DNA from: Bacillus sp. DJP31
GTDB taxonomy: Bacteria > Bacillota > Bacilli > Bacillales > SA4
DNA length: 24,000 nucleotides
Reading direction: 5' to 3'
Assembly (NCBI RefSeq): GCF_049310945.1
Contig: NZ_JBMERO010000010.1
Coordinates: forward strand, 118,070-142,069
Each line of letters begins with the position of its first letter. Position 1 is the first letter of the stretch. The translations under genes were made by a program, and so were the position numbers. Positions 4,366-21,119 of this stretch are shown here, one piece after another. The notes beneath the pieces are model-generated. The model did no database searches. It saw only the letters and a program-made list of their open reading frames with translations, and was not told where the DNA came from.

Positions 4366-4463
4366 TAATACTAAACCTTTTAAAATTTATGTAAGCTATG
4401 TTACAGAAAGAAATACTACCCTTTCGTAAGATGAGAGTAAGAATAAAATAGGGGGTGAAAAAA

Positions 4464-4883
4464 ATGAATAAATCTCTAAAGGCTGCAATCCTTGGTGGAA
4501 TTATTGGAGGAGTAATCTTTGGTATCATGATGCAAATGATGGGCATGATTCCGATGATTGCTATGATGGCTGGAAGTGAAAGTCTTGTTGTCGGGTGGCT
4601 CATTCATATGATTATTAGTATTATCTTTGCTGGTGGCTTTGTTATTTTTACTAAAATCGTGCGTAACCCTATCATAGCTACCATCACTTACGGAGTTATA
4701 TTATGGGTGATCGGACCATTACTAATCATGCCGATGATGTTAGGGATGGGTTCTATGATTAGTCATGCATTTGCACCGGACCAAATGATGAGCTTGCTAA
4801 CTCATATTTTCTTTACAGTTATTCTTGCTATTGTAAATAAGGTAATGAAAGGCAATACTATAAATACTCAAGTTTCAGCGTAA
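4464..4883 (+). CDS. Small integral membrane protein (about 4 TM helices), family not recognised
   Basis: ATG 4464 lies 6 nt after GGGGGTG, and the GTG at 4455 in the ORF track lies inside that RBS. The protein is Met/Gly/Ile-rich and hydrophobic, and the next gene starts 19 nt after its stop. Confidence 0.7.
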   Translation: MNKSLKAAILGGIIGGVIFGIMMQMMGMIPMIAMMAGSESLVVGWLIHMIISIIFAGGFVIFTKIVRNPIIATITYGVILWVIGPLLIMPMMLGMGSMISHAFAPDQMMSLLTHIFFTVILAIVNKVMKGNTINTQVSA

Positions 4884-4902
4884 TGGAAAGGATGATCACA
4901 AC

Positions 4903-5223
4903 ATGAGTAAAGAAATAAAGAGTTTCGTAGAATTTAAGAATTATATTGATTCATCTAAAGCTGTTGTAATCAAATTTTATGCAGATTGGTGCCCGGATTG
5001 CAAGAGGATGGATAACTTTATGGAAGAAGTTTTAGAAGGATTTGATTCTATTCCAATGTATAATTTAAATAAAGATCAGTTTGAACAGATTTCTTCTGAA
5101 AACGATGTGATGGGTATACCAAGCTTACTTGTTTTTAAAGAAGGTAAGAAAATAGGGCATCTACACAGTGCTAATGCAAAAACGCCTGACCCAGTAACCG
5201 AATTTTTATCTACGTTTTTTTAG
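4903..5223 (+). CDS. Thioredoxin-family protein (WCPDC active site)
   Basis: KFYADWCPDCKRM active-site context, cis-Pro region GIPSLLVF, 106 aa. RBS GGAAAGGA lies upstream of ATG 4903. Confidence 0.85.
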   Translation: MSKEIKSFVEFKNYIDSSKAVVIKFYADWCPDCKRMDNFMEEVLEGFDSIPMYNLNKDQFEQISSENDVMGIPSLLVFKEGKKIGHLHSANAKTPDPVTEFLSTFF

Positions 5224-5243
5224 TTGGGAAAGGTCACATACTA

Positions 5244-6368
5244 TTGTATGTGGCTTTCTTATTAGTAAATGAGGTGTATACAATAAAAACTGTAATATTA
5301 ATTGGAGCAGGCCATGCTCATTTATATTGTCTGAAAATGGTAGAAAAGGCAAACCTAAATGATATAAAATTTATACTCATATCCCCCTCTCCATACCAAT
5401 ATTATTCAGGAATGTTTTCAGGTTACACAGAGGGAATTTATTCAATTGATGACATTAGGATAGATGTAAGACAACTTTCTAAACATTCCTCATTTGAATT
5501 TGTAGAGGACCATGTTATTAAAGTATCTCCAGTAAGCAAATATGTTGAATGTTCAAAAGGACACAACATTCAGTTTGATGTTATCTCATTTGATATTGGT
5601 TCAATTGGCGAAAAACCATCAAGCTTCTCTAAAGAGATTTTTCCAATTAAGCCAACCTACATGTTTTCAGATAGTGTAAATCTGCTAAGAGAAAAAGAGA
5701 ATCCAATTATAGTCGGTGGGGGAGCATCAGGATTTGAATTGGCACTTGCCATTAAAGCATTTCAATTAACGCAACGAAAATTGAATGCAACCGTTACATT
5801 AGTGTCTTCAAAGCAATTATTGAGCGGCTATAATGACAAGATCTCAAAAACCACAAAGGAGATTGCAATAAGAAAAGGTGTTATCATCCATGAGAATGAA
5901 CCTGTAATTGATGTATTTGACAGTAAAATTATTACTAAATCCGGATTAACATTATCATATGACGGCCTTCTATGGCTCACTGGACCTAAAGCACCATTGC
6001 TTTTTAAACATTCTAATTTAACGGTTAATGAAACAGGGTACTTAGTTACAAATAGATTTCTACAAAGCGTACAATACCCATATATTTTTGGTGCAGGTGA
6101 TTGTGTATCTTTAGTAGAATATCCCACCCTCCCTAAAAATGGAGTGAACGCTATTAGACAAAGTCCTATTTTGTGGAGAAATATTTTAAGCTATTTGAAG
6201 GAAATGCTTCTAGTACCTTTCCAACCACAAAAAAATTACTTATCCATCCTTTCGACTGGACAAAAACAAGGTCTTTTACTATATAATAACTTTTATTTTC
6301 ATCATAAAAGCGCTTGGTTACTTAAAAATAGAATTGATCGCCGCTTTATTCGAAAATATAAAAAGTAA
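5244..6368 (+). CDS. FAD-dependent pyridine-nucleotide-disulfide-type oxidoreductase, resembles the 'N-terminal-to-SelD' family (TIGR03169, from memory)
   Basis: Rossmann start VILIGAGHAHL, then LISPSPYQYYSGMFSGYTEG, a second GGGASGFELA, GAGDC, LPKNGVNAIRQSPILWRNI and a C-terminal KNRIDRRFIRKY. The start is uncertain: TTG 5244, or in-frame GTG 5250/5274. The Rossmann fold would normally begin within about 10 aa of the start. Confidence 0.75.
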   Translation: MYVAFLLVNEVYTIKTVILIGAGHAHLYCLKMVEKANLNDIKFILISPSPYQYYSGMFSGYTEGIYSIDDIRIDVRQLSKHSSFEFVEDHVIKVSPVSKYVECSKGHNIQFDVISFDIGSIGEKPSSFSKEIFPIKPTYMFSDSVNLLREKENPIIVGGGASGFELALAIKAFQLTQRKLNATVTLVSSKQLLSGYNDKISKTTKEIAIRKGVIIHENEPVIDVFDSKIITKSGLTLSYDGLLWLTGPKAPLLFKHSNLTVNETGYLVTNRFLQSVQYPYIFGAGDCVSLVEYPTLPKNGVNAIRQSPILWRNILSYLKEMLLVPFQPQKNYLSILSTGQKQGLLLYNNFYFHHKSAWLLKNRIDRRFIRKYKK

Positions 6369-6469
6369 GGTTTTTTTACATAAGCCATCACTCCTACTTA
6401 AGTGCCACTTAAAGCTTTGAAACGATTATTTAATTAGTATATGTTTATCTATCAAATATGAGGTGCTTC

Positions 6470-7564
6470 ATGTCTATCTTTAGTATCGTCTTTTTCGGAG
6501 TATGTCTGTTTACTGCAACAAAGATTGTCAATCAATTAAACTTACAACACTTTTTTATTTCCATACCTTATACTGCAACATTCTTGTTAATACCAATTTC
6601 TTATATCTTGTATCACTTCTTTAATTTTGAACTTACATTACCATTTTTTCTAGAACGTCTTGCTGTAACAATCTTTTTATTTTCAATTGGATTCCAAATT
6701 GCAACTATTATTAACAAAAAATACTTCATAAGAGTTTTCGTTTTATCCATTATTAGTATTTTAATTATCGTGGTTCTAAATCTTATATCATTACCTTTTC
6801 CAGAGGATCTTCAAATTTTAGTTGGTTCTGCAATGTTTGCGTATAGTCCCTTTATAATGGAATATGTCACTTCGAACATATATACAGATTTCCTGATGTA
6901 CTGGAGCTCCATACAAATGGTTATCGTGTTCATAAGCACACCCATTTTCCTATTCGTTTCAAATAGAGTTCTAAAGAATAAAGACAATAAGAACCTTCAA
7001 CAAGAGTATTTACCTCTTACTTTGACAAGGCTACATTTTTTTGTAATAACAGTTTCGTTCCTATTTGTCTTTTTAACCATGAGACTTCATTCTTTAAACG
7101 TTTTATTTTTACATGATTTTGTATTTGGACTTCTTGCAGGATTTTTCTTAGGATACATCCTTAAACGTAGATCCTTACAAACTGAAAAAGCCACTAAACT
7201 TCATCAGTTAGGTAGCCTTGGGCTTTATCTATTTATTATGTCATCTATTAACCATTTTGCTTTTGTAAACCATGAACTATTTAACTGGTCTATTTTATTT
7301 CTAATGGTAATGAAAACAATACTGGTTGGGTTTTTAAGCTTATTCGTAATGATCTATTTCTTTAAATCCCTATCACTCCAAGAAAAGCTTGTCGCCACTG
7401 TTGCAGGTTGGACATTCGTCTTAAGCTCCCCTGTTGTTTGCATGCATGGGATGAGGACCGTTGTTAATAAGCTTGGCCCCGCACCCTATGTATTATTAAT
7501 TATCCCACCTATTATTTTGTGGATAGTTAATTATTTTCATATATTGATAATTTATTTATTCTAA
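6470..7564 (+). CDS. Polytopic membrane protein, distant GltS (Na+/glutamate symporter, ESS family)-like
   Basis: About 10 hydrophobic segments. The C-terminal MRTVVNKLGPAPYVLLIIPPI...VNYF aligns by eye with E. coli GltS MQAITERFGPSHMAFLVVPMVGAFFIDIVN. ATG 6470 follows GAGGTG (6460-6465) and is preferred over ATG 6458. Confidence 0.55.
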   Translation: MSIFSIVFFGVCLFTATKIVNQLNLQHFFISIPYTATFLLIPISYILYHFFNFELTLPFFLERLAVTIFLFSIGFQIATIINKKYFIRVFVLSIISILIIVVLNLISLPFPEDLQILVGSAMFAYSPFIMEYVTSNIYTDFLMYWSSIQMVIVFISTPIFLFVSNRVLKNKDNKNLQQEYLPLTLTRLHFFVITVSFLFVFLTMRLHSLNVLFLHDFVFGLLAGFFLGYILKRRSLQTEKATKLHQLGSLGLYLFIMSSINHFAFVNHELFNWSILFLMVMKTILVGFLSLFVMIYFFKSLSLQEKLVATVAGWTFVLSSPVVCMHGMRTVVNKLGPAPYVLLIIPPIILWIVNYFHILIIYLF

Positions 7565-8374: not shown

Positions 8375-8599
8375 CTATATAAACGTTGATTGTAATTGAT
8401 CCCATTTTAATACTTCGCCATTTTTTGTATTTATCAAAACAGGCGCAATCACTTCATCTACTAATCTAATAAGTTCTGATCTTGCTTCTACATCGTGTAG
8501 AACATTTTTTTCTATATATAAAATTTCGTTATTTTCCAATATTTTTTTTACACTAAAGCATCTTAAGCATCCATCTATTGTATATAATGTATAGTCCAT
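8375..8599 (-). CDS. Glutaredoxin/NrdH-like small redox protein (CLRC)
   Basis: 74 aa. The N-terminal beta-strand [16 protein letters not shown] carries a CxxC motif, and the rest follows a thioredoxin-fold pattern (..IAPVLIN..GEVL). RBS GGAGG lies upstream. It stops 13 nt before the MCP start, so the two are probably co-transcribed. Confidence 0.65.
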
Positions 8600-8702
8600 A
8601 ACTCTACCTCCTGTTTATTATATCTTATCCTTAATCCCTTTATGAAGTCAGTAAGATAAATTACAAGTTTTATTCGTAAAATGCTTTATAATATAAAATA
8701 AA

Positions 8703-8734: not shown

Positions 8735-9415
8735 ATGGATAAATTATTTCTATTGTCACAAATAAGCCTCTTAGATGAACTACCAATGGAAGAATTACAA
8801 ATCATTGATGAAATGAGTGAAATGAAGCCTGTCAAAAAAGGGGTCCTTATTTTCTCACCAGAAAAACCGATTGAGGCACTATTTCTATTAAAAAAAGGTC
8901 AGGTACGCTTATATAAAATTAACCAAAGCGGAAAACAATTTACTGTAGATATCTTAGTAGATGGAAACATCTTTGGAGAAACTTCAACATTATCAGTAAC
9001 TGACGATAATACGTATGCTGAAGCAATGACAGACACATATCTATGTATGATTAGTAAAACAGAATTTGAAACATTTATTGAAAAAAACCCTAAGATTGCC
9101 ATTAAATTAATTAATATATTATCAACAAGACTTAAAGAGCTTTATAGTCTTAGTGAAAAAATTGCCTTGGGCGATGTACGATATCGAATTATTTATCTGT
9201 TACTAAAGTTGAGTGAAAAAACGGGTAGAAGAAAAAATGAATGGCAAACGATTGAAATGAAAATAACCCATCAGGATGTCGCAAACATGGTTGGATCTAC
9301 AAGAGAAACGACAAGCGCAATCATGAGTCAACTTAAAAAAGAAGGATACATCAAAAAAACATTGCGTTTAGCCGTCCATGTAGATCGAGTAAATGAAATA
9401 TTAAATGATTTATAG
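8735..9415 (+). CDS. Crp/Fnr-family transcriptional regulator (cNMP-binding domain + HTH)
   Basis: Beta-barrel effector domain (LFLLKKGQVRLYK...IFGE) and a C-terminal HTH ITHQDVANMVGSTRETTSAIMSQLKKEG. There is no Cys cluster, so it is not a Bacillus Fnr-type Fe-S sensor. Confidence 0.9.
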   Translation: MDKLFLLSQISLLDELPMEELQIIDEMSEMKPVKKGVLIFSPEKPIEALFLLKKGQVRLYKINQSGKQFTVDILVDGNIFGETSTLSVTDDNTYAEAMTDTYLCMISKTEFETFIEKNPKIAIKLINILSTRLKELYSLSEKIALGDVRYRIIYLLLKLSEKTGRRKNEWQTIEMKITHQDVANMVGSTRETTSAIMSQLKKEGYIKKTLRLAVHVDRVNEILNDL

Positions 9416-9420
9416 AGTTA

Positions 9421-9452
9421 GAGAGTGAGCTTCTATTTACCTCACTCTTTTC
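9421..9452 (+). terminator. Hairpin terminator between convergent genes
   Basis: AGAGTGAG (9422-9429) pairs with CTCACTCT (9441-9448), followed by TTTCTT. It abuts the stop codon of the minus-strand oxidoreductase. Confidence 0.5.
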
Positions 9453-10877
9453 TTATCGAAACCATTGGATATATTTTTTAATGAGTTTAGGTATCCACCC
9501 TGTAAACAGAGCTTCTCGCCAATATACATCTGCCGTTCGTTGTACAGCTGCAGCATGATTTGGATAGGGGTGAATGACTTGAGAAATATCTCCTAGTTTT
9601 CTTTTATATTGCTTTGCAAAGACCACTTCTTGCATCCAATCTCCAGCACCTTTTCCGATTGCATGTGCGCCAATAATATATCCCTTTTTATCAGTTAAGA
9701 TTTTTACTAAACCGTTTGTCTCATGATCAGTAACAAAACGATCTACATCGTCTAAATTAATTTTATATACGTTATTCTCTATGTTTTTTGCGTTTGCTTC
9801 TTCTTCTGTTAACCCTAAATGAAAAATTTCTGGAGACAAATACGTATTCCATGGGACCGTTTCATAGCTTACTTTTCTTCTTAAACCTAATACAGCATTT
9901 TGTACAATAAGCTTCCCTTCCATTCCAGCAACATGAGTAAAGGGCATTTTTCCTACTACATCCCCAATTGCGTAAATAGAAGGAATATTTGTTTGCAAAG
10001 AATCATTTACGATAATATGCCCTTTTTCACTTGTTTTCACATTCACATTCTGTAATGCTAAAGAATCCGTATTTGGCACCCTGCCAACTGCAACTAGTAT
10101 TTCATCTACAGGGATTTCAAGTATCTTTTCATCTCTTTTTATTTTTACTATCTTTTGATTATTTTCGATTTCAACCTCCAAAGCGGAGGCATTTGTATAG
10201 ATCGTTATTTCCTTAGATAGTATATCAGTTGCCAAATTCCTGATTTCATGATCTTCACGTAGTAAAATATCCGGTGAACGTTCTACTACTGTTACATTAC
10301 TTCCTAGCCTTGACATCGCTTGGGCCATTTCTAGACCAACAGGACCCCCACCAACCACAAGTAAGCTTTCGGGTAAATGCTCTAGATCAAAAATGGTTTC
10401 ATTTGTGATAAAACCAGCTTCCTTTAAACCTTTAATAGGTGGAATAAAAGGTCTTGAACCTGTAGAAATGACGATTCGCTTTCCATATATCACTTCTTCT
10501 CCACTAATTTGAACTTCATGTTTTGATCGAAAGCTTCCTTTGCCTATAAAAACATCAATTCCTAATTTTTTAAATCGGTCAGCATCATCGTGCCTTTGAA
10601 TCGTTGAAATCGCATCTTTTGTTCTCTTTTTAACTTGCTTCATATCAATGGTACCTTCTAAGGTAAAACCAAGGTTCGCTATTTTTTTAGCATCATGTAC
10701 CATTCTAGCTGTTTCAATTAGAGCCTTTGATGGCACACATCCATAATGTAAGCAATCTCCACCAGGCTGCTTTTCTTTCTCTATCAGAGCAACTTTAGCA
10801 CCTAATGAAGCAGCACCAGCTGCAGCAGTTAGTCCTCCAGCTCCCCCACCTATTACAACTAGGTCATATTTTTTCAC
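9453..10877 (-). CDS. Class-I flavoprotein disulfide reductase (dihydrolipoyl dehydrogenase / mercuric reductase-like)
   Basis: N-terminal GGGAGG FAD fold, redox-active GGDCLHYGCVPSK (CxxxxC), a second Rossmann VVGGGPVGLE, GDV, and the C-terminal dimerisation motif HPYP. GTG start at 10877 follows AAGGGAGAGG. Confidence 0.9.
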   Translation of the reverse strand: MKKYDLVVIGGGAGGLTAAAGAASLGAKVALIEKEKQPGGDCLHYGCVPSKALIETARMVHDAKKIANLGFTLEGTIDMKQVKKRTKDAISTIQRHDDADRFKKLGIDVFIGKGSFRSKHEVQISGEEVIYGKRIVISTGSRPFIPPIKGLKEAGFITNETIFDLEHLPESLLVVGGGPVGLEMAQAMSRLGSNVTVVERSPDILLREDHEIRNLATDILSKEITIYTNASALEVEIENNQKIVKIKRDEKILEIPVDEILVAVGRVPNTDSLALQNVNVKTSEKGHIIVNDSLQTNIPSIYAIGDVVGKMPFTHVAGMEGKLIVQNAVLGLRRKVSYETVPWNTYLSPEIFHLGLTEEEANAKNIENNVYKINLDDVDRFVTDHETNGLVKILTDKKGYIIGAHAIGKGAGDWMQEVVFAKQYKRKLGDISQVIHPYPNHAAAVQRTADVYWREALFTGWIPKLIKKYIQWFR

Positions 10878-10893
10878 TGTATAAACCTCTCCC

Positions 10894-11475
10894 TTACTTC
10901 AATATTTTCTTTGCTTCTAAAAAACGCTGACATCCTGTAAACACTTCTATCACAAAAAAGATTAAAATAATCGGCAATAAATAGTCTGGAAATACCATCA
11001 TAAGTGTTAAGAAAATAAATCCTTCCGTTCTTTCTGCTAATCCAGCTTGATAATAAAAACTTTTCAGTCCTTGCTTATCTGACACAGCTCCAACTGTAAG
11101 AAATATAGTAATTGAAAAAATAATTGAAACACTTAACAGTAAAAGTGCCCATTGAACATCTGGAAAAACAAATGCAATTCCTAAAATCACACTGATTTCT
11201 ACTAATCGGTCAAATGTAACATCCATTACCGTTCCGAATGGTGATGTTTGTGTTTCCCTGGCCATTGTTCCATCCACCGCATCTAAAAATCCGGATAACC
11301 AGAGGACAATAACAGCGACAATCGTAAGTCCAAAATAGTAGAACACACCCGAGGATGCACCAATAATAAACGAGATAATTGTGACTTGATTAGGAGTCAG
11401 CCCTACTTTTAAAAGTGCTTTTGCCGCACCACCAATGAATGGTTGTACATATTTTCTTGCATGGGTATCAAGCAT
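10894..11475 (-). CDS. CDP-alcohol phosphatidyltransferase family protein
   Basis: Signature D-x2-DG-x2-AR...G-x3-D-x3-D is present as LDAVDGTMARETQTSPFGTVMDVTFDRL. ATG 11475 follows GGAGAGG and overlaps the upstream stop (ATGCTTGA). The ATG at 11490 in the ORF track has a poorer RBS. Confidence 0.85.
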   Translation of the reverse strand: MLDTHARKYVQPFIGGAAKALLKVGLTPNQVTIISFIIGASSGVFYYFGLTIVAVIVLWLSGFLDAVDGTMARETQTSPFGTVMDVTFDRLVEISVILGIAFVFPDVQWALLLLSVSIIFSITIFLTVGAVSDKQGLKSFYYQAGLAERTEGFIFLTLMMVFPDYLLPIILIFFVIEVFTGCQRFLEAKKILK

Positions 11476-12140
11476 TGTTATCCTCTCCATTCTTTATAAT
11501 CCCTAGTTTTTCTTTCAATGAAGAACTAACCATAATTGGGACAATTGCAACGACTACAAAAACAAGTATGGCCAGAACTATCATCCACCAAGAGGATGCT
11601 AAAAGACTAGATCCGAGAAAGTTATAAGCGAATGTTTCCATGTATGATTCCGATAACTGTCGCAACAAGGAAATGAGAAAAGCGGACCTTTGACAATCCT
11701 GATAGATAACTGATCATGTCGAAGTTAAAGAGAGGCATTAATCTAAGGAGAAGAACATAGAGAAATCCATTGTTTTTAAGCTGTTTTTCAATGACTTCGC
11801 CTTTACCCTTCCATTTTGCCTTCACGTATTTACTTCCTAGCATTCGTGCAATATAGAAAGCAAGAATAGCTCCCCCTGTTGCCCCAATAATGGTATAAAT
11901 CGTTCCCCAAAAAGTTCCAAATGCTAAGCCTGCCGATAAAGAAAGAATGGAAGCAGGAAACAAAATAAGAGGACGAATACTGTAGATTAAAATAAAAATG
12001 ACTGGTGCAAACAATCCAAATGACAATATCCACTCTCGAATTGTTTGGGGATGTATATTTAAGTAAGAATGATTGAACCAAATTAAGCCTATAATGACAA
12101 TTAAAGCTACTCCTATATTCAACATTGATTTTCGATTCAT
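11468..12140 (-). pseudogene. TVP38/TMEM64 (DedA-superfamily, SNARE-associated) membrane protein, +1 frameshift near 11635-11637
   Basis: ORF 11622..12140 ends ...VATVIGIIHGNIRL*. ORF 11468..11668 in another frame carries the missing C-terminus ETFAYNFLGSSLL... plus a final TM helix. Removing one A from GGAAACA gives IHGTFAYNFLG, colinear with the intact paralog at 22371 (VPGTIAYTVIG). Confidence 0.8.
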
Positions 12141-13123
12141 TCTCTTCCTCTCTTTTCTTTAAAATGAACAATATCCGTCGAATGTCTGACTCCAACTAGG
12201 AGTCGCATCCTTAATGTGTATTGCTGTTTTTCATCGCAAAGTAATGTGATGGATGTATTTAGGTCTTGAAGAAAAACAGTAACATATTGTTTTCCATACT
12301 TGTAGAAAGTATTTGTAACGATTCCTTCAAAGCTTAAATGAAAATCCCCTTCCGAATTTGCCATTAATTTACGAATAGGAACAAAATGATTTGAGTCTAT
12401 TAACAATCCTTCTGAAAAATACTTTGCAACACTTTCATTTTTAGGATAGTGATATACATCATGAGGTACACCTATTTGTTGAATTCCGCCTTCAGCAAAT
12501 ACCGCAACTTTATCTCCCATAATCATGGCTTCTTCTGTATCATGAGTAACAAACAGGGTTGTGACACCTTGCTCCATTAATAAAGTCTTTACCCACTCTC
12601 TTAGCTGCTGTCTAAGCTGTTTATCTAAGCTACTAAACGGTTCATCTAAAAGTAGTAATTCTGGCTCTAGGATTAATGCTCTTGCTAAAGATGCTCGTTG
12701 TTTTTGGCCACCAGATAGTTCATGAGGATAATGCTCACTATAAGAATGTAGGTCTACCTTTTTTATATATTCGTTTACTTTATGCATTCGTTCATCTATT
12801 TTCATGTTTGTAAATAACAAACCATACTCTATATTTTCTCTAATTGTCATATGCGGAAACAACAGTGCCTGCTGAAACATCATCACAATCGGTCTTTTAT
12901 TAGCTGGAAGATTTGTGAAATCTTTATCATTAATAATAACTTTACCAGAGGAAACAGACTCTAAACCTGCAATGCATTTTAATAATGTTGATTTTCCAGT
13001 ACCTGAAGGACCAACAATACTAATGATTTCTCCTGGATGGATGAGAAGATTCACATCTTTGAATATCACATTCTTTTTATATTCTTTTTTTAGCGAATGT
13101 AATTGTATGGTGTTACCTTTCAT
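12137..13123 (-). CDS. ABC transporter ATP-binding protein (YnjD/PotA-like, with C-terminal regulatory domain)
   Basis: Walker A GPSGTGKST, signature LSGGQKQRASLARAL, Walker B LLLLDEP. ATG 13123 lies 6 nt after AGGAGGTG. Its stop overlaps the TVP38 start (ATGA at 12137-12140). Confidence 0.9.
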   Translation of the reverse strand: MKGNTIQLHSLKKEYKKNVIFKDVNLLIHPGEIISIVGPSGTGKSTLLKCIAGLESVSSGKVIINDKDFTNLPANKRPIVMMFQQALLFPHMTIRENIEYGLLFTNMKIDERMHKVNEYIKKVDLHSYSEHYPHELSGGQKQRASLARALILEPELLLLDEPFSSLDKQLRQQLREWVKTLLMEQGVTTLFVTHDTEEAMIMGDKVAVFAEGGIQQIGVPHDVYHYPKNESVAKYFSEGLLIDSNHFVPIRKLMANSEGDFHLSFEGIVTNTFYKYGKQYVTVFLQDLNTSITLLCDEKQQYTLRMRLLVGVRHSTDIVHFKEKRGRE

Positions 13124-13946
13124 AAAGATCACCTCCTACTTTAGACTTTTTATAGTAAGGAACTAGTATTCTAAACAACATTTCTGACAAGCCCATCATA
13201 GCAATTGGAATTAAAGCAAATAGGATAGAAACGCTAGCAATCATCGTTTCATTTACGGTCGAAAAATAAGGAAAATAAATCATCGCTAACGTGATGACGC
13301 TTCCTCCACCTATAATGGCTGTTAGAGCATACTGACTTAGTGAAATGACCGTTACGAGGAAAACAACACTTCGTAAACTAGGTAATAAAAGAGGAAAGTA
13401 AATATGATGAAGAATTGTCATATTGCTTGCTCCTAGTGTTCTAGCTTGGCTCTCTAAGTGAGGTCCGATACTATCAAAACCAGATCGTAATATTCTTATA
13501 GAATAGGGAACTGTTGGGATCAGATGAACAAGACTTACCCCTAGCCAGTTGTCTGTTAAACCAAACCTGATCATCGTGATATGAATCCCCATCACCATGG
13601 CAAGGCTAGGAAATAGAATAGGTAAATAGAGAAAGGTTTCAAATAAGGCTTTTCCTTTGAACGTATCATGCGCCAACACTTTGGCAGCTGGTAGGCTTAT
13701 GATAAAGTTTAAAATTAAAACAATTAGATTTAGTCCCATGGAAGTAACAATTGCTTTTAAAATTATGGGATCTGTTACTAACACTTTCCACACATCTAAA
13801 TCTACTTTAAGTAATGAGAAACTCTCCCAGCTCCAACCGCTTGTAATACTTTTAATAGATAAAAAGAGAAACGGAGTAATAAAGAGAAACAATACAAGTA
13901 GGCATGTTGTTTTCACTGTCATTTTTTTTCGCATACTAACTTCCAT
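13113..13946 (-). CDS. ABC transporter permease (second of two)
   Basis: Six hydrophobic segments and an EAA-loop-like ESQARTLGASNMTILHHIYFPLLLP. An alternative start is ATG 13934 (MRKKM...). It overlaps both flanking genes. Confidence 0.85.
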   Translation of the reverse strand: MEVSMRKKMTVKTTCLLVLFLFITPFLFLSIKSITSGWSWESFSLLKVDLDVWKVLVTDPIILKAIVTSMGLNLIVLILNFIISLPAAKVLAHDTFKGKALFETFLYLPILFPSLAMVMGIHITMIRFGLTDNWLGVSLVHLIPTVPYSIRILRSGFDSIGPHLESQARTLGASNMTILHHIYFPLLLPSLRSVVFLVTVISLSQYALTAIIGGGSVITLAMIYFPYFSTVNETMIASVSILFALIPIAMMGLSEMLFRILVPYYKKSKVGGDLYER

Positions 13947-14802
13947 TTCCCTTCATCATCCTATATCTTTTCTGATTAAACAGGAGCTGAGTCGTAATCA
14001 TTATAATAATAACGATCATTGAAAGAAGCGTCATCGCCGCATAGGAAAGTCCTCTATTGCTCCAATTCCCTTCAAAAAACCATTCGTAGGCTAAGACGGG
14101 TAACATCTTAGGATGTGTAGTCCCGAGGAGATAAGGTACTTCTACTGCTGCTAGGACAAATGAAATAATAATAACCGCTGTTTCGACAACAACAGGTAAG
14201 ATCCAAGGCAACTCCACTGTCTTAAATACATCCCAATCGTTTCCACCTAACGTTTTAACAACGTAGGATTGTTCATCATTTACTTGACTGTATATAGGCA
14301 GTAACATTAACACAACAAAAGGTACTTCCTTCCAGACGTAGGTCAGTATAATTCCAATCCCTGTTTGATCTCTAAACATAACAGGAAAATCATTCATCTC
14401 ATTTATCCAGCCTATTTGATGAAGGAGACTTGATAGTAACCCAGATTGAGATAATAAAAGGTATAACATATAACCCCATATAAAATGAGGAAACAACATT
14501 GGAATCCAAACCACTAGCTTTGAGAACTTATTTTTGATGATTTGATGAAGTGACTTTGCTAAAATTACTCCAATAACAATTGAAATGATTGTGGAAATTG
14601 TAGTTACCCATAAACTATAAGAAAGAGAGGCTAGAAAACTCTTATTAGAAAACAACTTCGTGTAATTTTCTAGTGTAACCTCTCCATTTATCTGAAAGCT
14701 TTTTAAAACAGACATACCTATTCCATAACCAACAAAGAACAATGTAAAAATGCAAGCAGGTGCTACTGCCCAAACTGAACTATTCAGCTTGAACGACTTC
14801 AC
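13936..14802 (-). CDS. ABC transporter permease (first of two)
   Basis: Polytopic, with an EAA-loop-like VVKTLGGNDWDVFKTVELPWILP. GTG start at 14802 lies downstream of AAAGGAG and overlaps the SBP gene by 23 nt. Confidence 0.85.
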   Translation of the reverse strand: MKSFKLNSSVWAVAPACIFTLFFVGYGIGMSVLKSFQINGEVTLENYTKLFSNKSFLASLSYSLWVTTISTIISIVIGVILAKSLHQIIKNKFSKLVVWIPMLFPHFIWGYMLYLLLSQSGLLSSLLHQIGWINEMNDFPVMFRDQTGIGIILTYVWKEVPFVVLMLLPIYSQVNDEQSYVVKTLGGNDWDVFKTVELPWILPVVVETAVIIISFVLAAVEVPYLLGTTHPKMLPVLAYEWFFEGNWSNRGLSYAAMTLLSMIVIIIMITTQLLFNQKRYRMMKGNGS

Positions 14803-16024
14803 TTAACCAATTCTCCTTTAACCATTCTACATATTTAGAATCTACTTCAGGTAATCTATGCTTTTGTAATTCTTCTGGAGAAAGAACAGAATGGCCACGG
14901 TCCATACTCGCTAATTTCTTCTGACCTTCTTCTGATAATTTATTTGGATCTAGAGAAATATTTTCACCCCAATAAGTAGAATCGTATTTTGCTAGTTGTG
15001 CTTCTGGTGATAATAAAAAGTTAATGGCAGTCATCGCACCTGCTTTATTCGGACTATTAAAAGGTATGGCTAAAAAATGAGTATTTCCAATCGAACCCGA
15101 CTCAAGGACAAATGATTTCGTAGAAACAGGAAATACTCCGTCTTTTATCTGACTCTCTGCTCTTGCTTCGTTATAACCCATTGTCAACCATACTTCACCT
15201 TGACTGTATAGATGATCTAAATCAGATAGTGTGGCAGGATAAGTCTCACCATTTCTCCATAGATTTGGCTTAATTTCTTTTAAATAATTCCACATGTATT
15301 CTGCTGATGTGTTAACGACTTCTTCGTTAAACCCATCCTTTAATAATACATCATGTCCACCTACAGACTCATAAAGGAGATGACGCAAGAAAGCACTTCC
15401 TGTAAAATCGCCAGCCTCGGGATACGTAAACTTCCCTGGGTTTTCATGTACCCAATCTTGTAGTTCTTTAAAATTACTGGGTGGGGTCGTTATTTTTGCA
15501 CTATCGTATAAAAAGACAAATTGAACTTTTCCCCATGGTGCTTCTAATCCATCGATTTTTGTTCCGAAATCATATTGGCTATCAGCACTTTCGGTATCAA
15601 CAAACTCATTATAATTAGGCATTTTCTCTACGAATGGTCCAAATAAAAGGCCATTCTCTTTTGCATTTTTAAAGTTTTCACCATTAATCCAAATGACATC
15701 AATAGTTCCTTCTTCTTTATTCGTTTCTTTTTCGTTAAGTAGCTTTTGTAAAAATTCATTTGTGTTCATCGGTATTCTTTCAAGCGTCATATTGTACTCT
15801 TGTAACAGTCTTGGTTTTACCCATTCATCCATGTAATTGTTAATACCTTCATCTCCACCCCACATAAAGACTCTAACGTTTGTGTCTTTAGCTTGTTCTG
15901 CCGTTTCATCAAAACTCTGTTCAAGAATGGAAGTTCCATTACTTGTCTGAGTATTGCTACACGCTGTTAAAAAAAAGAGAAATCCTAAAATGATACCTAG
16001 CTTTTTCAATGACAATCTCTCCAT
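14780..16024 (-). CDS. ABC transporter substrate-binding lipoprotein, YnjB family
   Basis: Signal peptide with lipobox LTAC|S. Colinear by eye with E. coli YnjB: VFMWGGDEGINNY / AWGGDERTNAY, IDVIWINGENF / VDLLWVNGENF, EAPWG, FTYPEAGDFTGSAFL / VTYPRPPDFTGTAFL, GNTHFLAIP / GNVHFVTIP. Confidence 0.8.
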   Translation of the reverse strand: MERLSLKKLGIILGFLFFLTACSNTQTSNGTSILEQSFDETAEQAKDTNVRVFMWGGDEGINNYMDEWVKPRLLQEYNMTLERIPMNTNEFLQKLLNEKETNKEEGTIDVIWINGENFKNAKENGLLFGPFVEKMPNYNEFVDTESADSQYDFGTKIDGLEAPWGKVQFVFLYDSAKITTPPSNFKELQDWVHENPGKFTYPEAGDFTGSAFLRHLLYESVGGHDVLLKDGFNEEVVNTSAEYMWNYLKEIKPNLWRNGETYPATLSDLDHLYSQGEVWLTMGYNEARAESQIKDGVFPVSTKSFVLESGSIGNTHFLAIPFNSPNKAGAMTAINFLLSPEAQLAKYDSTYWGENISLDPNKLSEEGQKKLASMDRGHSVLSPEELQKHRLPEVDSKYVEWLKENWLSEVVQAE

Positions 16025-16180
16025 TTCTTTAACATCAATTACTTTATTCCACTCTAATACAATTCATATTCTTTTTCAGTAAGCTTCCTTACAAAAGAAT
16101 TTTATTTTGAGATGTATAGGACATTTTCAAGCTAGCATAATGTAATTTCAGTAATTAATCGATAAAAAGGAGGTTACTAG

Positions 16181-17294
16181 GTGAACATATATCCCAGAAA
16201 AAACTTCATACCTCAAGCACTCCCTCTCCCCTACCGGCAGACTCTACCGATTCCATTACAAAATATTGCTCAAAGTTGGAATACGAATTGGTCAAAAAGC
16301 ACGATCCCACTTACTGAATTGCAACCTGTAAAAAGAAGAGATGAGATACCATCAATAGATATTCCAACATTTGAAACGATTAATGAAGCAAAAAATTGGC
16401 TTCATCCACAAGAGCCCGTTATGGTAGTTGAGATAAATGGAGCTGCACGTGCTTATTCATTACAACTATTAATTTGGCATGAAATTGTTAATGATGTAAT
16501 TAACTCCGTACCAATTGCTGTTACGTATTGTCCTTTATGTAATTCTGCCTTTGTCTTTTCGAGATGGTTTAATAATGGTTTACTTGAGTTTGGAACAACA
16601 GGATTACTTAGAAATTCAAATTTAGTTATGTATGACAGAACTACAGAAAGCTTATGGCAACAATTTACTGGTGTTTCAATTGCTAGGAGAATTTGCTAGA
16701 TCTAGATTGTCATTCATTCCATCTAGTTTAGTTAGTTTTCAAACTTTTTCAACAACCTATCTAAGCGGTGTCGTGTTATCAAAAAAGACTGGCTACGTAA
16801 GAAATTATGGGCAAAATCCTTATTTAAATTATGACGTAATTGGGAGTGTTCCTTTTTTATATTTTGGTCCGATTGACCCTCGATTACCAGCAATGGAGCG
16901 TGTTGTTGGTATTTGGAATCAAGAATCAAGTATCACCTATCCATATTCGGCATTATCAAACAATAAAATCACCTATGGACAACTAGAAAATAGTGAGTTT
17001 GTTATATTTTTTAATGATAAAACAAAAACGGCTGTAGGTAGTAAAAACATTGCAGAATCAAGAAATGTAGGTTCAACAAATGTTTTCCTCCCTATTGCAA
17101 ACGCGAATCGCTTAACTTTTATATATGAAAATAATAAAATAGTAGATCTAGAAACAAGAAGTGAATGGAGTTTGTTAGGTATGGCATTAAGAGGACCCTT
17201 ACGCGGAGTTAAGCTACCAGTTGTTATTCATGGAGATCCTTTTTGGTTTTCCTGGGCTGCTTTCTATCCAAATAATGTGATTAAAAATAAATAA
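16181..17294 (+). pseudogene. DUF3179 domain protein, +1 frameshift near 16685
   Basis: Part 1 (16181..16699) has ARAYSLQLLIWHEIVNDVINSVPIAVTYCPLCNSA...LWQQFTGVSIARRIC*. Part 2 (16632..17294) continues as GEFARSRLSFIPSS... Removing the A in GCT-A-GGA-GAA joins them as TGVSIAGEFARSRL. GTG start at 16181 follows AAGGAGG. Confidence 0.8.
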
Positions 17295-17336: not shown

Positions 17337-18565
17337 TTACTTCGTTTTCCGATGAGACGCACCATAACGAATACCCATAAATTCTGCTAAATCTTTATCC
17401 ATTGTAACTAGATCTTCGCGGCTTAGCTCGTTTAATTGCTTCTTTCCCATCACCTGAAGAGCACCTTTTATTTCTTCTGTACATGACTTCAAGAAATTAG
17501 CGAGATCTTTAGCTCCTTCTTCAGGGTCAAACTCATCTTGTAGCTTTCCTGAGTATAAAGCTAACTGTGGAGGTGGCATATTTGGGAGTGCTTTAGTCAT
17601 CTGACTCTGCAGTGTAGCCATTAATGCGATAGATCCAATATATACGGCATCTGCTCCTATTGCTAGTGCCTTTATAAAATGTCCTGGGGTCGTAAGTCCT
17701 CCAGCAGCAATAATTTGAACCTTATCTTTTAGGTTGTGTTCTTTCAGCCAGTCAACTGCTCGTACTAACGCATGTAATGTCGGAAGTCCAATATCATCTT
17801 CAAACGTAGGTGGGGCACCTGCTGTACCACCATAGTCTGACTTTAAACGATTAATTAAATTGATAATATCTTGGCTAGACTCAACATTAGGGAATCTTGG
17901 CTGAATGGTAGAATCTTCTCCTTCTTTAAGATCCCACGTTTCTCTTAAATGGTCTCCAATATCCTGCGCCTTTGTTTTAATTTCAGCCGCGCCGCCCCAA
18001 GCACCTTGTCCGAGTTGAACTTCAATCGCATCTAAGTGTTTTAAGTCTTCCTCCTTCATTCTCATTGCACGATTATATTGACCAATTAGAATTTTGGCAT
18101 TATCTCTTTCTTCATTTGTAAGTCCTGTCTCGCCTGTGTTTGTAGATGTTCCTGCCAATGATGTTCCTTTAGCAATTGCCATTCTCATCTTTAAACTTAA
18201 CGAGCCACCGTAAGACATTCCAGTTAACATAATAGGAGTATCTAATTCGAGTGGTTTCTTCGTATTTGGGCCAATAACCGTTTTTGTTTGAACATCTTTT
18301 TTACTTTTAGTTGGAAGTTCAAAGAGCTGTCTAGGGTTCAAAAGAACTTTCTCCCAAGGTGATAATACATTAGGCTCCCAATTGGTCGCTTTAGTTCTTT
18401 TCCTGTCTGTGCTCTCATCCCTGCTGCCATTATCGCTTTTGGTGTAAGCTTTGTAGCAATTGTCATCATTAGAAATGGATTTTCTTCATATTTACTCGTT
18501 AGCATTTTTTTCATCGCTGCATCCATCGTAGGATCCATTAGATATAACATCATCTTTTCAATCAT
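17337..18565 (-). pseudogene. FMN-binding glutamate-synthase-family protein (PF01645-like), -1 frameshift near 18373 and apparent internal deletion
   Basis: ORF 18338..18565 ends ...KRPIGSLMYYHLGRKFF*. The next frame reads LSPWEKVLLNPRQLFELPT and continues into ORF 17337..18341. Restoring one C in GGGAGC-C(C)T-AAT gives GSPNVLSPWEKVLLNPRQ. Family motifs present: MSYGGSLS, NTGETG, QLGQGA, GGTAGAP, GLPTL, AAGGL. Confidence 0.8.
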
Positions 18566-18744: not shown

Positions 18745-19668
18745 TTAGACTGAATTAATAAAGGTTAATAATTTTTTTGTCATTAACTTAACTAATTCTA
18801 CAAATTCTACATAACTACACTTTAGATTTTGTGAATTCTGAATTTTAGGTAATTCTCTTAGATTTAGACTATCAGTGACAATGCCATCAATACCCATTCG
18901 CTTCATTCTTATTAGATCCTTATGTGAATGCACATCCCAAACGTATACTTTTAATCCAGCTAATTTAGTGCGAGCTATAAAGTCTGGTGTAACAGCAAAT
19001 TCTGGAGGACTTACATATTCTGCAAAATCTGCTATTTCTTTAAGCCTTGAATCTGTTAAATGGTTAACCTCAAAACCGCTCAACAAAAGACACCTAGAAA
19101 CTTCTGGTAGCAATTTTTTCATTCTCCTTAGTGACAATTTATCAAAGGTTTGCACAACAATCTCTCTCTTTTTCCCTTTCTTTTTCAATAATTTTGCTAA
19201 CTTACGCTCTATTCCAGGATATAAATCAGGATACTTTATTTCAATAAGTAAACCCACTACATTATTGTATTTTTCAATTACTTCCCTAAGAGTAGGTATT
19301 TTTTCTCCTTTAAAATGTTTATTGAACCAATATCCTGCATCAAATTGTTTTAACTCTTCAACCGTATAATCATGAACGACTCCTATACCATTTGTAGTAC
19401 GCTCTAACGAGTAATCATGAATTACAACAATTTCCCCTTCCCTACTCAATTGAATATCAAGTTCTATCATGTCATAGTTGAGTTCAATAGCCTTATTGAA
19501 CGAGGCGAATGTATTTTCCGGAGCAATTGTAGACACACCTCTATGAGCAATTAGATTAAATAGATGCTGTTCTTTACACATACTTTTTTCATAAGTCTCT
19601 ACATTTAATATTGCAACTAAAATAAAACTGATAATGATGAAGGGCATATGACTTTCTTGATAATTCAA
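18745..19668 (-). CDS. Glycerophosphodiester phosphodiesterase (GDPD family), membrane-anchored or secreted
   Basis: HRGVSTIAPENTFASFNKAIELNYDMIELDIQLSREGEIVVIHD is the GDPD catalytic N-terminus, and an N-terminal hydrophobic segment is present. TTG start at 19668 lies 5 nt after GGAAGGGG. Confidence 0.9.
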   Translation of the reverse strand: MNYQESHMPFIIISFILVAILNVETYEKSMCKEQHLFNLIAHRGVSTIAPENTFASFNKAIELNYDMIELDIQLSREGEIVVIHDYSLERTTNGIGVVHDYTVEELKQFDAGYWFNKHFKGEKIPTLREVIEKYNNVVGLLIEIKYPDLYPGIERKLAKLLKKKGKKREIVVQTFDKLSLRRMKKLLPEVSRCLLLSGFEVNHLTDSRLKEIADFAEYVSPPEFAVTPDFIARTKLAGLKVYVWDVHSHKDLIRMKRMGIDGIVTDSLNLRELPKIQNSQNLKCSYVEFVELVKLMTKKLLTFINSV

Positions 19669-20007
19669 TAAAACCCCTTCCTTTTAATAAAATTTAAAGA
19701 AAAAGCAATTACAAAGAAATTATTCCATTTGTTTTCAAATTATCTTATGAAAATCATTGTATTATTGGGAGAGGCTTTTGCCTATTTGAGTAATTAAGTA
19801 ATAATGTAAAAACAAAACCTACATAGAACATCCACTTTGTTATAGCTAATAAATTAATACATTCTTGAGCATTATTTATTGAGCCTATGGTATGAACGAA
19901 TGGTATAAAAAACTAACACCTTTATCTTAAAGTCCTATGATGAAGTATAAAAAGTAGAAGTATTAGTGCTCTAATCCCCTATAAATAAAAAGATAAGGAG
20001 GTAGATA

Positions 20008-20127
20008 ATATCAGGTTATGGATATGTAATAGGCTTTGCGTTAATCGTAGTGTTGTTTATCCTTTTAATTATTTTTGGTGCTGCTAGAGTAGGTCCGGCT
20101 ACTAACACTCATATTCATTTTAAATAG
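20008..20127 (+). pseudogene. YjcZ-like tiny transmembrane (sporulation) peptide, copy 1, with ATA where the start codon should be
   Basis: AAGGAGG (19995-20001) is followed 6 nt later by ATA TCA GGT TAT GGA TAT GTA ATA GGC TTT GCG TTA ATC GTA GTG TTG TTT ATC CTT TTA ATT ATT... This reads (I)SGYGYVIGFALIVVLFILLIIFGAA.... GFALIVVLFILLII is the YjcZ/tiny_TM_bacill core. No in-frame ATG, GTG or TTG follows the upstream TAG at 20002-20004. Confidence 0.5.
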
Positions 20128-20146
20128 TAGAGGGTGAGGTGATAAA

Positions 20147-20272
20147 TTGCGATTGGGATTTGGTTATGGTGGCTATGGTTATGAAGGTGGATTCGCGTTA
20201 ATTGTCGTTTTATTTATCCTATTAATTATTATTGGTGCTCAGGTCTTGGTCATCATGGTTAATTTAGAGTAG
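20147..20272 (+). CDS. YjcZ-like tiny transmembrane (sporulation) peptide, copy 2 (41 aa)
   Basis: GGGTGAGGTG, then TTG 20147: MRLGFGYGGYGYEGGFALIVVLFILLIIIGAQVLVIMVNLE*. A Gly/Tyr-rich N-terminus plus the GGFALIVVLFILLII core. It is too short for the supplied ORF track. Confidence 0.65.
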   Translation: MRLGFGYGGYGYEGGFALIVVLFILLIIIGAQVLVIMVNLE

Positions 20273-20397
20273 AATGGGCACTTAAAATCCATAATTATCC
20301 TCTACAGATCAAAGTAAAAAGCCTATTATACGCATCACTTCAATATATTTTGCATCTATTTATTTCTTTCGTGCATATTTACTCTCTAAGCCCTTGA

Positions 20398-20691
20398 TTC
20401 GGTTTTGCGTTTGATTGGTTAAGTAGCCATTCAGAACATACAAATGCCGTCCGTGTCCAAATTTCAGTGTTGGCCTATAATTCCCATAATTGGTTAGGAA
20501 GAACCTGTTTGCCGGACAAAGTTCGAAATCAGACGATGGAAACGATACGCACCCAAATCATTAAGATTGCGGGAAGAGTGGTTCGTTCCGCTCGCTATAT
20601 GACATTCAAATTATGCAGTAGTTGCCTATACAAAGGTGCATTCTGGCAAACATTATTGGATATCCAACAACTCCAAGTCAGAATAAACTAG
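20398..20691 (+). mobile_element. IS1380-family transposase, C-terminal remnant only (about 97 codons)
   Basis: The frame is open from 20398: FGFAFDWLSSHSEHTNAVRVQISVLAYNSHNWLGRTCLPDKVRNQTMETIRTQIIKIAGRVVRSARYMTFKLCSSC.... It matches the conserved IS1380/DDE C-terminus (SSHSF-AN-..LQI..LAYNL.NW....P......I.T.R..L.KIA.KVV.SARY..FKL.SS). There is no N-terminal or catalytic region upstream. Confidence 0.7.
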
Positions 20692-20754
20692 ATCGTTTAC
20701 TAGAGGGCACTTAAAATCTAGTTACTCAAAAAAACGAACTATTCTAGGGAGTCT

Positions 20755-20948: not shown

Positions 20949-21119
20949 TAAATTTAACACTTACTACTTAAAATGTGGATTTTTTCAGTGGCTCGTTTAC
21001 TAGTAACCTATTTTTTTAAAAAATAGGTTCAACCAAGGGAGAAGTATGCCCATCTTTGATTAATGAGGTTATCTGATAAGAAATTCATATCCATTTAATG
21101 AAGGTGAAGTGTAAATCAA

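Follow-up and report, generated by a model that had tools for sequence, protein, structure and literature searches.

Seven consecutive genes on the minus strand of a 24,000-nt stretch of Bacillus sp. DJP31 DNA (NZ_JBMERO010000010.1, positions 118,070-142,069, forward strand; this whole stretch is termed the window) form an operon whose parts are kept together across the Bacillales and have homologues in the ydjXYZ-ynjABCD/ynjF cluster of E. coli. In order of transcription, from 16024 to 9453, the operon encodes a YnjB-type substrate-binding protein (SBP), two permeases and an ATPase of the ATP-binding cassette (ABC) type, a TVP38/VTT membrane protein, a YnjF-type CDP-alcohol phosphotransferase (PT) and a flavoprotein disulfide reductase (FDR). 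It is proposed, as a reading that is plausible yet falls somewhat short of probable, that these genes form a single conserved functional unit controlled by a local regulator of the Crp family, that the unit corresponds in the Bacillales to the E. coli cluster, and that it links import of a compound to its attachment to lipid and its reduction. The observations on which this proposal stands concern linkage, namely the layout of the operon, its conservation, its homology to the E. coli genes, a shared cis-element and the coupling of FDR to TVP38; from these we infer import, attachment, movement and reduction.

All seven open reading frames (ORFs) are present where the initial annotation had placed them (Table 1), and the stop/start junctions that it described were found throughout the operon. 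The SBP and permease 1 ORFs overlap by 23 nt and those of the two permeases by 11 nt, whilst permease 2 and the ATPase overlap by 11 nt if the latter begins with the ATG at 13123 or by 20 nt if it begins with the GTG at 13132. An ATGA is common to the ATPase stop and the TVP38 start, ATGCTTGA is common to the end of TVP38 and the start of PT, and the GTG start of the reductase is preceded by a 16-nt spacer containing GGGAGAGG. The seven genes are translationally coupled. A scan of the operon for internal terminators gave only weak matches at chance level (7 found against 4.1 +/- 1.8 expected), in agreement with the earlier statement that no internal terminator was seen, and a hairpin 3' of the reductase stop probably serves as the terminator. 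Profile searches with Pfam and NCBIfam upheld the family assigned to each of the seven proteins. Rfam and tRNA scans of the window gave no match.

To survey the neighbourhoods of PT orthologues, 80 loci anchored on PT were collected from species-representative genomes, all of them Bacillales (PT identity 63-86%), and searched by tblastn with the window proteins; 71 of these loci had sufficient flanking DNA to be counted. With PT present throughout by survey design, the ABC genes were found in 64/71 loci, TVP38 in 57/71 and FDR in 55/71, and all three partners together in 51/71. The set is kept across more than 20 genera, most commonly in the order SBP-permease-permease-ATPase-TVP38-PT-FDR. Rearranged loci (L056, L059, L067, L072-78 and L079) retain it as well: L056 and L059 have a divergent PT, the Planococcaceae loci L072-78 are inverted, and Chengkuizengella (L079) has the order FDR-TVP38-ABC-PT. 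An equivalent operon with a fused 556-aa permease is present in Carnobacterium funditum (Lactobacillales). Importer, TVP38 and reductase therefore mostly travel together with PT in the Bacillales (51-64 of 71 loci), which bears out the view of the initial annotation that the seven genes are a single conserved functional unit.

In E. coli K-12 the genes ydjX-ydjY-ydjZ-ynjA-ynjB-ynjC-ynjD-ynjE are consecutive, with ynjF adjoining on the opposite strand (b1750-b1758). Their products include the TVP38/DedA proteins YdjX and YdjZ, an AhpD-like protein (YnjA), a rhodanese (YnjE) and a member of the CDP-alcohol phosphatidyltransferase family (YnjF). Homologues of YnjB, YnjC, YnjD, YdjX/YdjZ and YnjF, all significant by blastp, lie in the single operon of the window, so the association of ABC importer, TVP38 and YnjF spans two phyla. 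FNR directly activates ydjXYZ-ynjABCD as one operon, and ynjE separately (Myers et al. 2013, PMC3688515), and overexpression of BaeR mildly induces ynjABCD (PMC2731931). The claim that no pathway of this composition had been described overlooked this cluster, which has homologues of everything except FDR. The companion claim that YnjBCD-type transporters have no described substrate stands, and no assigned function could be found in the literature, either for the E. coli y-genes or for the module.

The unit also reaches beyond the seven genes to which it had been confined and takes in thiol/selenol redox genes as a Crp-family regulon. The adjacent Crp-family protein, whose best NCBIfam match is NtcA (below cut-off), is probably the regulator of the unit, and a recurrent dyad is its likely operator. 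The dyad has the consensus TGTAAG-N4-CTTACA (TGTAA-N6-TTACA, NtcA/CRP-like) and, allowing at most one mismatch, occurs in approximately 35 of 70 SBP upstream regions, nearly always 44-124 nt and typically about 60 nt from the start, against a background of 0.10 matches per kb; this placement is kept across many genera. The window contains 6 matches where 2.0 are expected, and four of the six lie in promoters of linked genes (Table 1). The other two, at 519-534 and 11215-11230, are both intragenic and were taken as chance matches. Across loci the dyad was found upstream of SBP (24 loci) and of the genes for the Crp-family protein (13/21), a DUF2938-like membrane protein (6/7), an OsmC-like protein (5/8) and thioredoxin (5/6).

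Clustering of all ORFs of the 80 loci and the window revealed an eighth recurrent family, a FAD oxidoreductase of about 360 aa found in 48/80 loci directly after FDR or within the operon. The family scores 277-294 bits with TIGR03169, below the cut-off of 310, and as it has a single conserved Cys, in GAGDC, it is NDH-2-like and without a redox disulfide. Other recurrent neighbours were the Crp-family regulator (an orthologue beside the module in 20/80 loci), glutaredoxin-like (12), OsmC-like (8), DUF2938-like (6-7) and thioredoxin (5) genes.

Coupling of FDR to TVP38 extends well beyond the Bacillales. Among the best 150 matches to FDR in a set of 1.8 billion cluster representatives were VTT-FDR and FDR-VTT fusions, that is, both domain orders, and a search with a fused protein recovered 120 clusters, all with both domains, from metagenome-assembled genomes of Binatia, Deltaproteobacteria, Verrucomicrobia, Acidobacteria and Zixibacteria. 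In 80 metagenome loci anchored on the FDR subfamily, of which 59 could be evaluated for TVP38, the two were fused or adjacent in 48. The TVP38-FDR pair is ancient. That TVP38 and the reductase are functionally linked, as had been argued from the naming of fusions in RefSeq, is supported by these fusions in both orders and by a report in which COG0398 DedA proteins are found fused to oxidoreductases more often than to anything else (Todor, Herrera and Gross 2023, PMC10127716). The RefSeq name given earlier, 'bifunctional TVP38/TMEM64 ...', was not confirmed, the name shown for the fusions being 'FAD-containing oxidoreductase'. Selenocysteine or read-through at the stops between adjacent metagenome TVP38 and FDR genes was considered and rejected: these stops are ordinary TGA, TAA and TAG codons, after which come a spacer that is not conserved and a fresh start codon.

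The FDR itself is predicted to be a class I enzyme of the GR/Lpd/MerA superfamily, with Rossmann domains, a dimerisation domain and a CxxxxC motif. This motif reads CLHYGC (residues 42-47); C42 and C47, conserved at 98% across 58 orthologues, are the only cysteines of the window protein, which has a cysteine-free C-terminal tail and no N-terminal extension. Identity with MerA was rejected (373 bits, cut-off 454; no C-terminal Cys pair), as was identity with dihydrolipoyl dehydrogenase (378.7 bits, cut-off 408.8), the HPxxxE dyad of which is replaced by HPYPNH, where only PYPxH is conserved in the family. The C-terminal tail, YWRE..LF...KY...FR, is conserved and rich in aromatic and basic residues, and may bind the membrane. 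Fusions of FDR relatives to a DEP domain were also observed (P0278, P0321 and P0327). In eukaryotes DEP domains bind membranes and lipids, and such a fusion would be another means of tethering FDR to the membrane.

PT matches Pfam PF01066 with 45.7 bits (cut-off 22) and E. coli YnjF over its full length with 28% identity by blastp. The catalytic signature D-x2-DG-x2-AR-x7-G-x3-D-x3-D is intact, the ORF reading DAVDGTMARETQTSPFGTVMDVTFD, and its residues are invariant across an alignment that includes relatives and E. coli YnjF; the alignment also yielded two signatures of the family, MLD(T/R)H and KSFYYxxGLxExTE. The best match among solved or curated CDP-alcohol phosphotransferases is the phosphatidylinositol-phosphate (PIP) synthase PgsA1 of M. 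tuberculosis (PDB 6h53, E = 4e-10), in which S132, K135, R137, R155 and R195 bind the phosphate of inositol phosphate (PMC6506517). Aligned to 6h53 by HMMER, PT has L, G, V and G at the first four of these positions, R195 being outside the aligned region, and its scores with the curated phosphatidylinositol-phosphate/archaetidylinositol-phosphate synthase families are 105.7 bits (cut-off 180) and 72.1 bits (cut-off 170). The name PIP synthase, given to PT by JGI, was rejected on account of these sub-cut-off scores and the absence of the four phosphate-binding residues.

The SBP, permease and ATPase genes are together predicted to encode a binding-protein-dependent ABC importer. SBP scores 459.6 bits on the YnjB-subfamily model NF008633/PRK11622 (cut-off 203; profile positions 13-395 of 397) and matches E. 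coli YnjB with 34% identity across 372 aa, its full length (blastp, E = 6e-65). A sequence search of the PDB with SBP gave no match. Its AlphaFold2 model (pLDDT 91.5) was compared with known structures by Foldseek, and the nearest folds, PhnS-like, PotD, AfuA, SpuD, FutA and TbpA, are distant (TM 0.5-0.65, 12-20% identity); the modelled fold lies outside the ModA/Sbp oxyanion class. The ligands of PhnS-like, PotD, AfuA, SpuD, FutA and TbpA proteins are organic cations, phosphonates, sugar phosphates, thiamin or iron. Our guess is that a cation, zwitterion or phosphorylated organic molecule would suit the modelled fold class, more so than a bare oxyanion; as Foldseek gives a broad fold class only, no ligand can be assigned.

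The operon TVP38 carries a VTT domain (PF09335, 86 bits, cut-off 33.9) with 31-35% identity to E. coli YdjZ/YdjX by blastp. The domain itself is present, but the frame is not the intact one of the VTT family: it is broken (+1) where the A run at 11635-11637 is one nucleotide too long, and a neighbouring Pro codon now reads His (11640-11642). Intact orthologues read GIIPGTFAYNFLG at this point (three-frame translation against L002, L016, L023 and L030), so the 1-nt frameshift noticed earlier is borne out, and the DJP31 copy reads as a pseudogene. An intact paralogue had been placed at 22371 and is indeed encoded there by the ORF 22362/22371-23030; it has 47% identity to YdjZ of E. coli and 36% to the TVP38 encoded in the operon. 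Since the operon copy is frameshifted, the module would be impaired in DJP31 unless a co-regulated paralogue substitutes, and this paralogue might compensate for the defect. The DUF3179 gene, split into two overlapping ORFs, is the second disrupted gene of the window beside the frameshifted TVP38; with both genes affected, gene decay and sequencing error are each possible.

Table 1. Features of the window, in order of position (position 1 is the first letter of the 24,000-nt stretch).
Feature	Position	Strand	Basis and remarks
Perfect dyad TGTAAGCTATGTTACA	4390-4405		Window scan; 50 nt before the operon at 4455-7564
Co-regulated operon: DUF2938-like membrane protein, thioredoxin, NDH-2-like oxidoreductase, membrane protein	4455-7564	+	NCBIfam and Pfam
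Thioredoxin	4903-5223	+	
NDH-2-like FAD oxidoreductase, TIGR03169 'N-terminal to SelD' type	5244-6368	+	
Membrane protein, 368 aa	6458-7564	+	
Glutaredoxin-like CxxC protein	8375-8599	-	Pfam Glutaredoxin; beside regulator in 12 loci
Dyad, one mismatch	8650-8665		Window scan; between glutaredoxin-like and regulator genes
Crp/Fnr-family regulator, one Cys, no Fe-S motif	8735-9415	+	Pfam cNMP_binding and HTH_Crp_2
Hairpin AGAGTGAG-N11-CTCACTCT, probable terminator	~9424-9450		8 bp, read from the sequence; between convergent reductase and regulator stops
Class I flavoprotein disulfide reductase (FDR)	9453-10877	-	Pfam Pyr_redox_2 (220 bits) and Pyr_redox_dim (77 bits)
YnjF-type CDP-alcohol phosphotransferase (PT), 193 aa	10894-11475/11490	-	Pfam PF01066 CDP-OH_P_transf; blastp to YnjF
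TVP38/VTT (COG0398 DedA, YdjX/YdjZ-like), pieces 11622-12140 and 11468-11668	11468-12140	-	Pfam VTT_dom
ABC ATPase, YnjD-like	12137-13132 (likely ATG start 13123)	-	Pfam ABC_tran; 36% identity to YnjD
ABC permease 2	13113-13946	-	Pfam BPD_transp_1; blastp to YnjC residues 353-501 (C-terminal half)
ABC permease 1	13936-14802	-	Pfam BPD_transp_1; blastp to YnjC residues 32-231 (N-terminal half)
YnjB-type substrate-binding lipoprotein (SBP), lipobox LTAC	14780-16024	-	NCBIfam PRK11622; blastp to YnjB
Dyad AGTAAGCTTCCTTACA	16078-16093		Window scan; 61 nt upstream of SBP start
DUF3179 gene, ORFs 16181-16699 and 16632-17294	16181-17294	+	Pfam and tblastn; divergent from SBP gene
AhpD-like 'peroxidase-related enzyme' probable selenoprotein, CFYU motif	21364-21900	-	TIGR01926, conserved UGA
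Perfect dyad TGTAATGCAAATTACA	22143-22158		Window scan; between AhpD-like gene and TVP38 paralogue
Intact TVP38/VTT paralogue	22362-23030 (probable TTG start 22371)	+	Pfam; blastp

In the mechanism proposed for the unit, the YnjB-type ABC system would import a small polar organic compound, and the YnjF-type PT would attach this compound or a derivative to a CDP-activated lipid at the cytoplasmic face. TVP38/VTT would then move the product or a precursor within or across the membrane. FDR, held at the membrane via TVP38 and its own C-terminal tail, would reduce a redox-active centre of the compound, whether a disulfide or a group with pentavalent arsenic, selenium or sulfur, using NAD(P)H and its CxxxxC motif, with the co-regulated thiol/selenol proteins assisting.

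Several points weigh against this reading. The ligand, the lipid product and the FDR substrate are all hypothetical, the components having been assigned from sequence, and as SBP has no close structural relative, its class of ligand has been guessed. TVP38 proteins could act either as scramblases or as transporters of small molecules, and with the operon TVP38 copy a pseudogene DJP31 may not run the pathway. The E. coli cluster has neither a flavoprotein disulfide reductase nor an NDH-2-like oxidoreductase, the first of these absences being the one that counts here. In Halobacillus, PT lies about 150 kb from ABC-TVP38 and no FDR is nearby; the ABC-TVP38 genes there adjoin an NDH-2-like oxidoreductase and thioredoxin. 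Finally, the metagenome FDR loci contain a YnjF-type PT in 2/80 cases and a YnjB-type SBP in 0/80, such that the ABC/PT association is lineage-specific and the TVP38-FDR pair general; as PT and ABC genes are nearly absent beside the pair outside the Bacillales, the four functions are separable. As a separate observation, the ABC-VTT module of Halobacillus salinus (L084) also adjoins a PF04018 (VCA0040-like/DUF368) membrane protein, a family implicated in polyprenyl-phosphate transport.

What accompanies the TVP38-FDR pair in metagenomes bears on the nature of the reduced group. The pair or fusion was found within arsM-arsS-DUF547-GT2(TIGR04283)-DUF2064 operons (L092, L105, L114, L132, L166, L167 and others). 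ArsS, the arsenosugar radical SAM (seleno)protein, is its same-strand neighbour in 8 loci (TIGR04167, 400 bits, cut-off 300), and the TIGR04283 arsenosugar biosynthesis glycosyltransferase (260 bits, cut-off 182) occurs in 9 and a Radical-SAM/ArsM-like methyltransferase fusion (NCBIfam) in 5; by Pfam, neighbours of the pair include DUF3047 (10 loci), DUF547 (6), DUF3179 (4) and PHO4 transporters (3). An arsenosugar marker is present in 12/37 metagenome loci of at least 9 kb, and two long contigs carry the full operon of methyltransferase(s), Radical_SAM+DUF3641, VTT::FDR, DUF547, GT2 and DUF2064. The first reaction committed to arsenosugars is that of ArsS (Xue 2019, as cited in bioRxiv 10.1101/2022.09.23.509062); no published account linking COG0398 DedA proteins to this biosynthesis was found. 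The position of TVP38-FDR within arsM-arsS operons implies a metalloid- or chalcogen-bearing substrate. Of the disulfide (or chalcogen or metal) reduction suggested in the initial annotation, reduction is thus retained, whilst the emphasis on a disulfide is not, since the arsenosugar context points to a metalloid or chalcogen at least as strongly.

The same context gives rise to an alternative in which the operon salvages organoarsenicals: the ABC system would import an arsenosugar or methylated arsenical, FDR would act on As(V)/As(III), YnjF would build a lipid resembling an arsenosugar phospholipid and TVP38 would distribute it, as an uptake version of the arsM-arsS clusters. We regard this as unlikely, although it draws on the occurrence of the FDR subfamily and TVP38 with ArsS, TIGR04283, DUF2064, DUF547 and ArsM-like methyltransferases, on the markers in a third of the long metagenome loci, on DUF3179, which adjoins FDR in L111, L119, L157 and L159 and the SBP gene in the window, and on PHO4-type transporters, which hold the uptake position in three metagenome clusters. 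PHO4-type transporters are a known route of arsenate entry, and arsenosugar phospholipids require a phosphatidyl transfer for which, to our knowledge, no enzyme is known. Set against this, tblastn with the metagenome queries revealed no homologue of ArsS, the TIGR04283 glycosyltransferase, the radical-SAM/ArsM-like methyltransferase, DUF547, DUF3047 or PHO4 in the window or in 83 Bacillales/Lactobacillales loci, the window having only the TVP38-FDR pair and DUF3179 in common with an arsenosugar cluster. There are also no ars resistance genes in the window, and the rarity of YnjF-type PT beside the pair indicates that it is not a regular member of arsenosugar clusters.

More broadly, the Bacillales operon could be the uptake-fed branch of a widespread pathway in which TVP38/DedA and a membrane-tethered FDR act on a metalloid- or chalcogen-containing lipid. 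Bacillales, and partly E. coli, would import the head group via YnjBCD and attach it with YnjF, whilst cyanobacteria-like and many uncultured bacteria would make it with ArsM and ArsS. We consider this generalization improbable as it stands; if true, YnjF would be the missing synthase of arsenosugar phospholipids, or of analogous As/Se/S-lipids, and COG0398 DedA proteins would have a first defined substrate.

The linked redox genes could also belong to an extracytoplasmic thiol redox shuttle, which may be likened to the cystine/cysteine shuttle of E. coli. Here the ABC system would retrieve an oxidised low-molecular-weight disulfide, FDR would reduce it and TVP38 would return the thiol to the outside, with PT a passenger and no special lipid involved. 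Such a shuttle would account for the conserved CxxxxC of FDR, for a regulon rich in thioredoxin, glutaredoxin-like, AhpD-like (probable selenoprotein) and OsmC-like (8 loci) genes, and for the AhpD-like YnjA and rhodanese YnjE of the E. coli cluster. It is nonetheless doubtful, as PT is the most constant partner (by survey design) and is translationally coupled to TVP38 via ATGCTTGA, YnjF is linked to the cluster in E. coli too, and no DedA/TVP38 protein is known as a thiol exporter (Todor 2023, PMC10127716).

The AhpD-like gene of the window raises a connection with selenium. An in-frame TGA at 21661-21663 (NECFY-TGA-MEHH) occupies the position of the second Cys of the family CxxC, and reading U as C gives the protein a score of 150 bits with TIGR01926 (cut-off 82). 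The TGA is kept in three other Bacillaceae species (L040, L056 and L059), each with the gene next to the module. The 33 nt that follow it are nearly invariant, codons for identical amino acids being identical in 10/11 cases after the TGA against 18/99 elsewhere (Fisher p = 2.6e-6), and a GC-rich SECIS-like hairpin is found 13 nt downstream (21634-21650). A selenoprotein family of AhpD-like CxxU proteins is already known (PMC9312934), and the gene probably encodes a selenocysteine protein, which would imply that the organism uses selenocysteine. In E. coli K-12 (L001/L085, 1834-1848 kb), selD (b1764) lies 5.6 kb from ynjF and less than 13 kb from ydjX-ynjD; this proximity may be coincidence and is a weak hint of a selenium link.

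On this basis the unit could serve to acquire selenium or another chalcogen, the ABC system and TVP38 importing a selenium compound that the two flavoproteins, thioredoxin and glutaredoxin reduce to selenide for SelD. In its favour, the NDH-2-like oxidoreductase found beside the module in 48/80 loci belongs to a TIGR03169-type family fused to SelD in aquatic microbes (PMC2398784), the probable AhpD-like selenoprotein gene has the regulator dyad in the window, the E. coli cluster near selD is FNR-activated (PMC3688515), and according to a 2022 review no high-affinity selenium transporter is known (PMC9312934). This reading appears more doubtful still: no SelD was found within 10 kb of the module in 83 related loci or the window, the TIGR03169 scores are below cut-off, the selenoprotein lies beside the module in only 4/81 loci, the modelled SBP fold is not of an oxyanion-binding type, and the phosphatidyltransferase would have no role. 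Merely fortuitous adjacency of the ABC genes and the TVP38/PT/FDR genes, to which the TVP38-FDR pair without ABC or PT outside Bacillales and Enterobacteria and the lack of one or more parts in some Bacillales might be attributed, is very improbable and largely refuted by the synteny, in that the set persists despite rearrangement, neighbouring genes run into one another at their stop and start codons, one conserved regulator site precedes the operon, and ABC, TVP38 and PT are also associated in E. coli, a member of another phylum.

In this unit four widely conserved orphan families meet, namely COG0398 TVP38/DedA, YnjF-type PT, YnjBCD and a distinct FDR subfamily, three of which are y-genes with no assigned function in E. 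coli K-12. The candidate substrates raised are arsenosugars and methylarsenicals, selenium compounds and low-molecular-weight disulfides, and the module bears on the cargo of DedA proteins other than those for undecaprenyl phosphate (UndP), on the enzyme that makes arsenosugar phospholipids and on uptake of trace metalloids and chalcogens.

Upstream of the operon lie a glutamate-synthase-domain (FMN) gene (17337-18341, minus strand), which covers only part of the Pfam model and may be truncated, and a gene for a glycerophosphodiester phosphodiesterase (GDPD; 18745-19668, minus strand); neither is kept beside the module in other loci. The region from approximately 20000 to 21300 has raised GC (0.39) and no long ORFs, and a 74-aa fragment at 20467-20691 resembles a gene remnant, possibly of a transposase.

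Compared with systems already described, PT has the metal-binding signature motif in common with PgsA1 and archaetidylinositol-phosphate synthase and, unlike PgsA1, is without the four inositol-phosphate-binding residues and scores below the curated cut-offs. The COG0398-oxidoreductase fusions, for which phospholipid scrambling and a link to aerobic metabolism have been proposed (PMC10127716), contain the same domain pair that is encoded here by separate genes two positions apart; that account includes no ABC/PT operon, regulon or arsenosugar context. The arsM-arsS clusters (TIGR04167, TIGR04283, TIGR04282) have the same FDR subfamily and TVP38/VTT, often fused, in the same operon, whereas the window and its Bacillales relatives have an ABC importer and PT in place of ArsS, ArsM, GT2, DUF2064, DUF547 and DUF3047. 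The E. coli cluster differs in its YdjY and rhodanese YnjE, which have no window counterpart, and in having ynjF on the opposite strand, and the Bacillales regulator, without Fe-S cysteines and with a TGTAA-N6-TTACA site, is unlike E. coli FNR. The two clusters nevertheless have in common a YnjB-type SBP, permease (fused in E. coli), ATPase, COG0398 proteins (31-47% identity) and a YnjF-type PT, together with an AhpD-like member, which is YnjA in E. coli and a YnjA-like gene 5.3 kb from the operon in the window, and control as a unit by a protein of the Crp/Fnr family, probable for the window and in E. coli exerted by FNR as an activator (PMC3688515).

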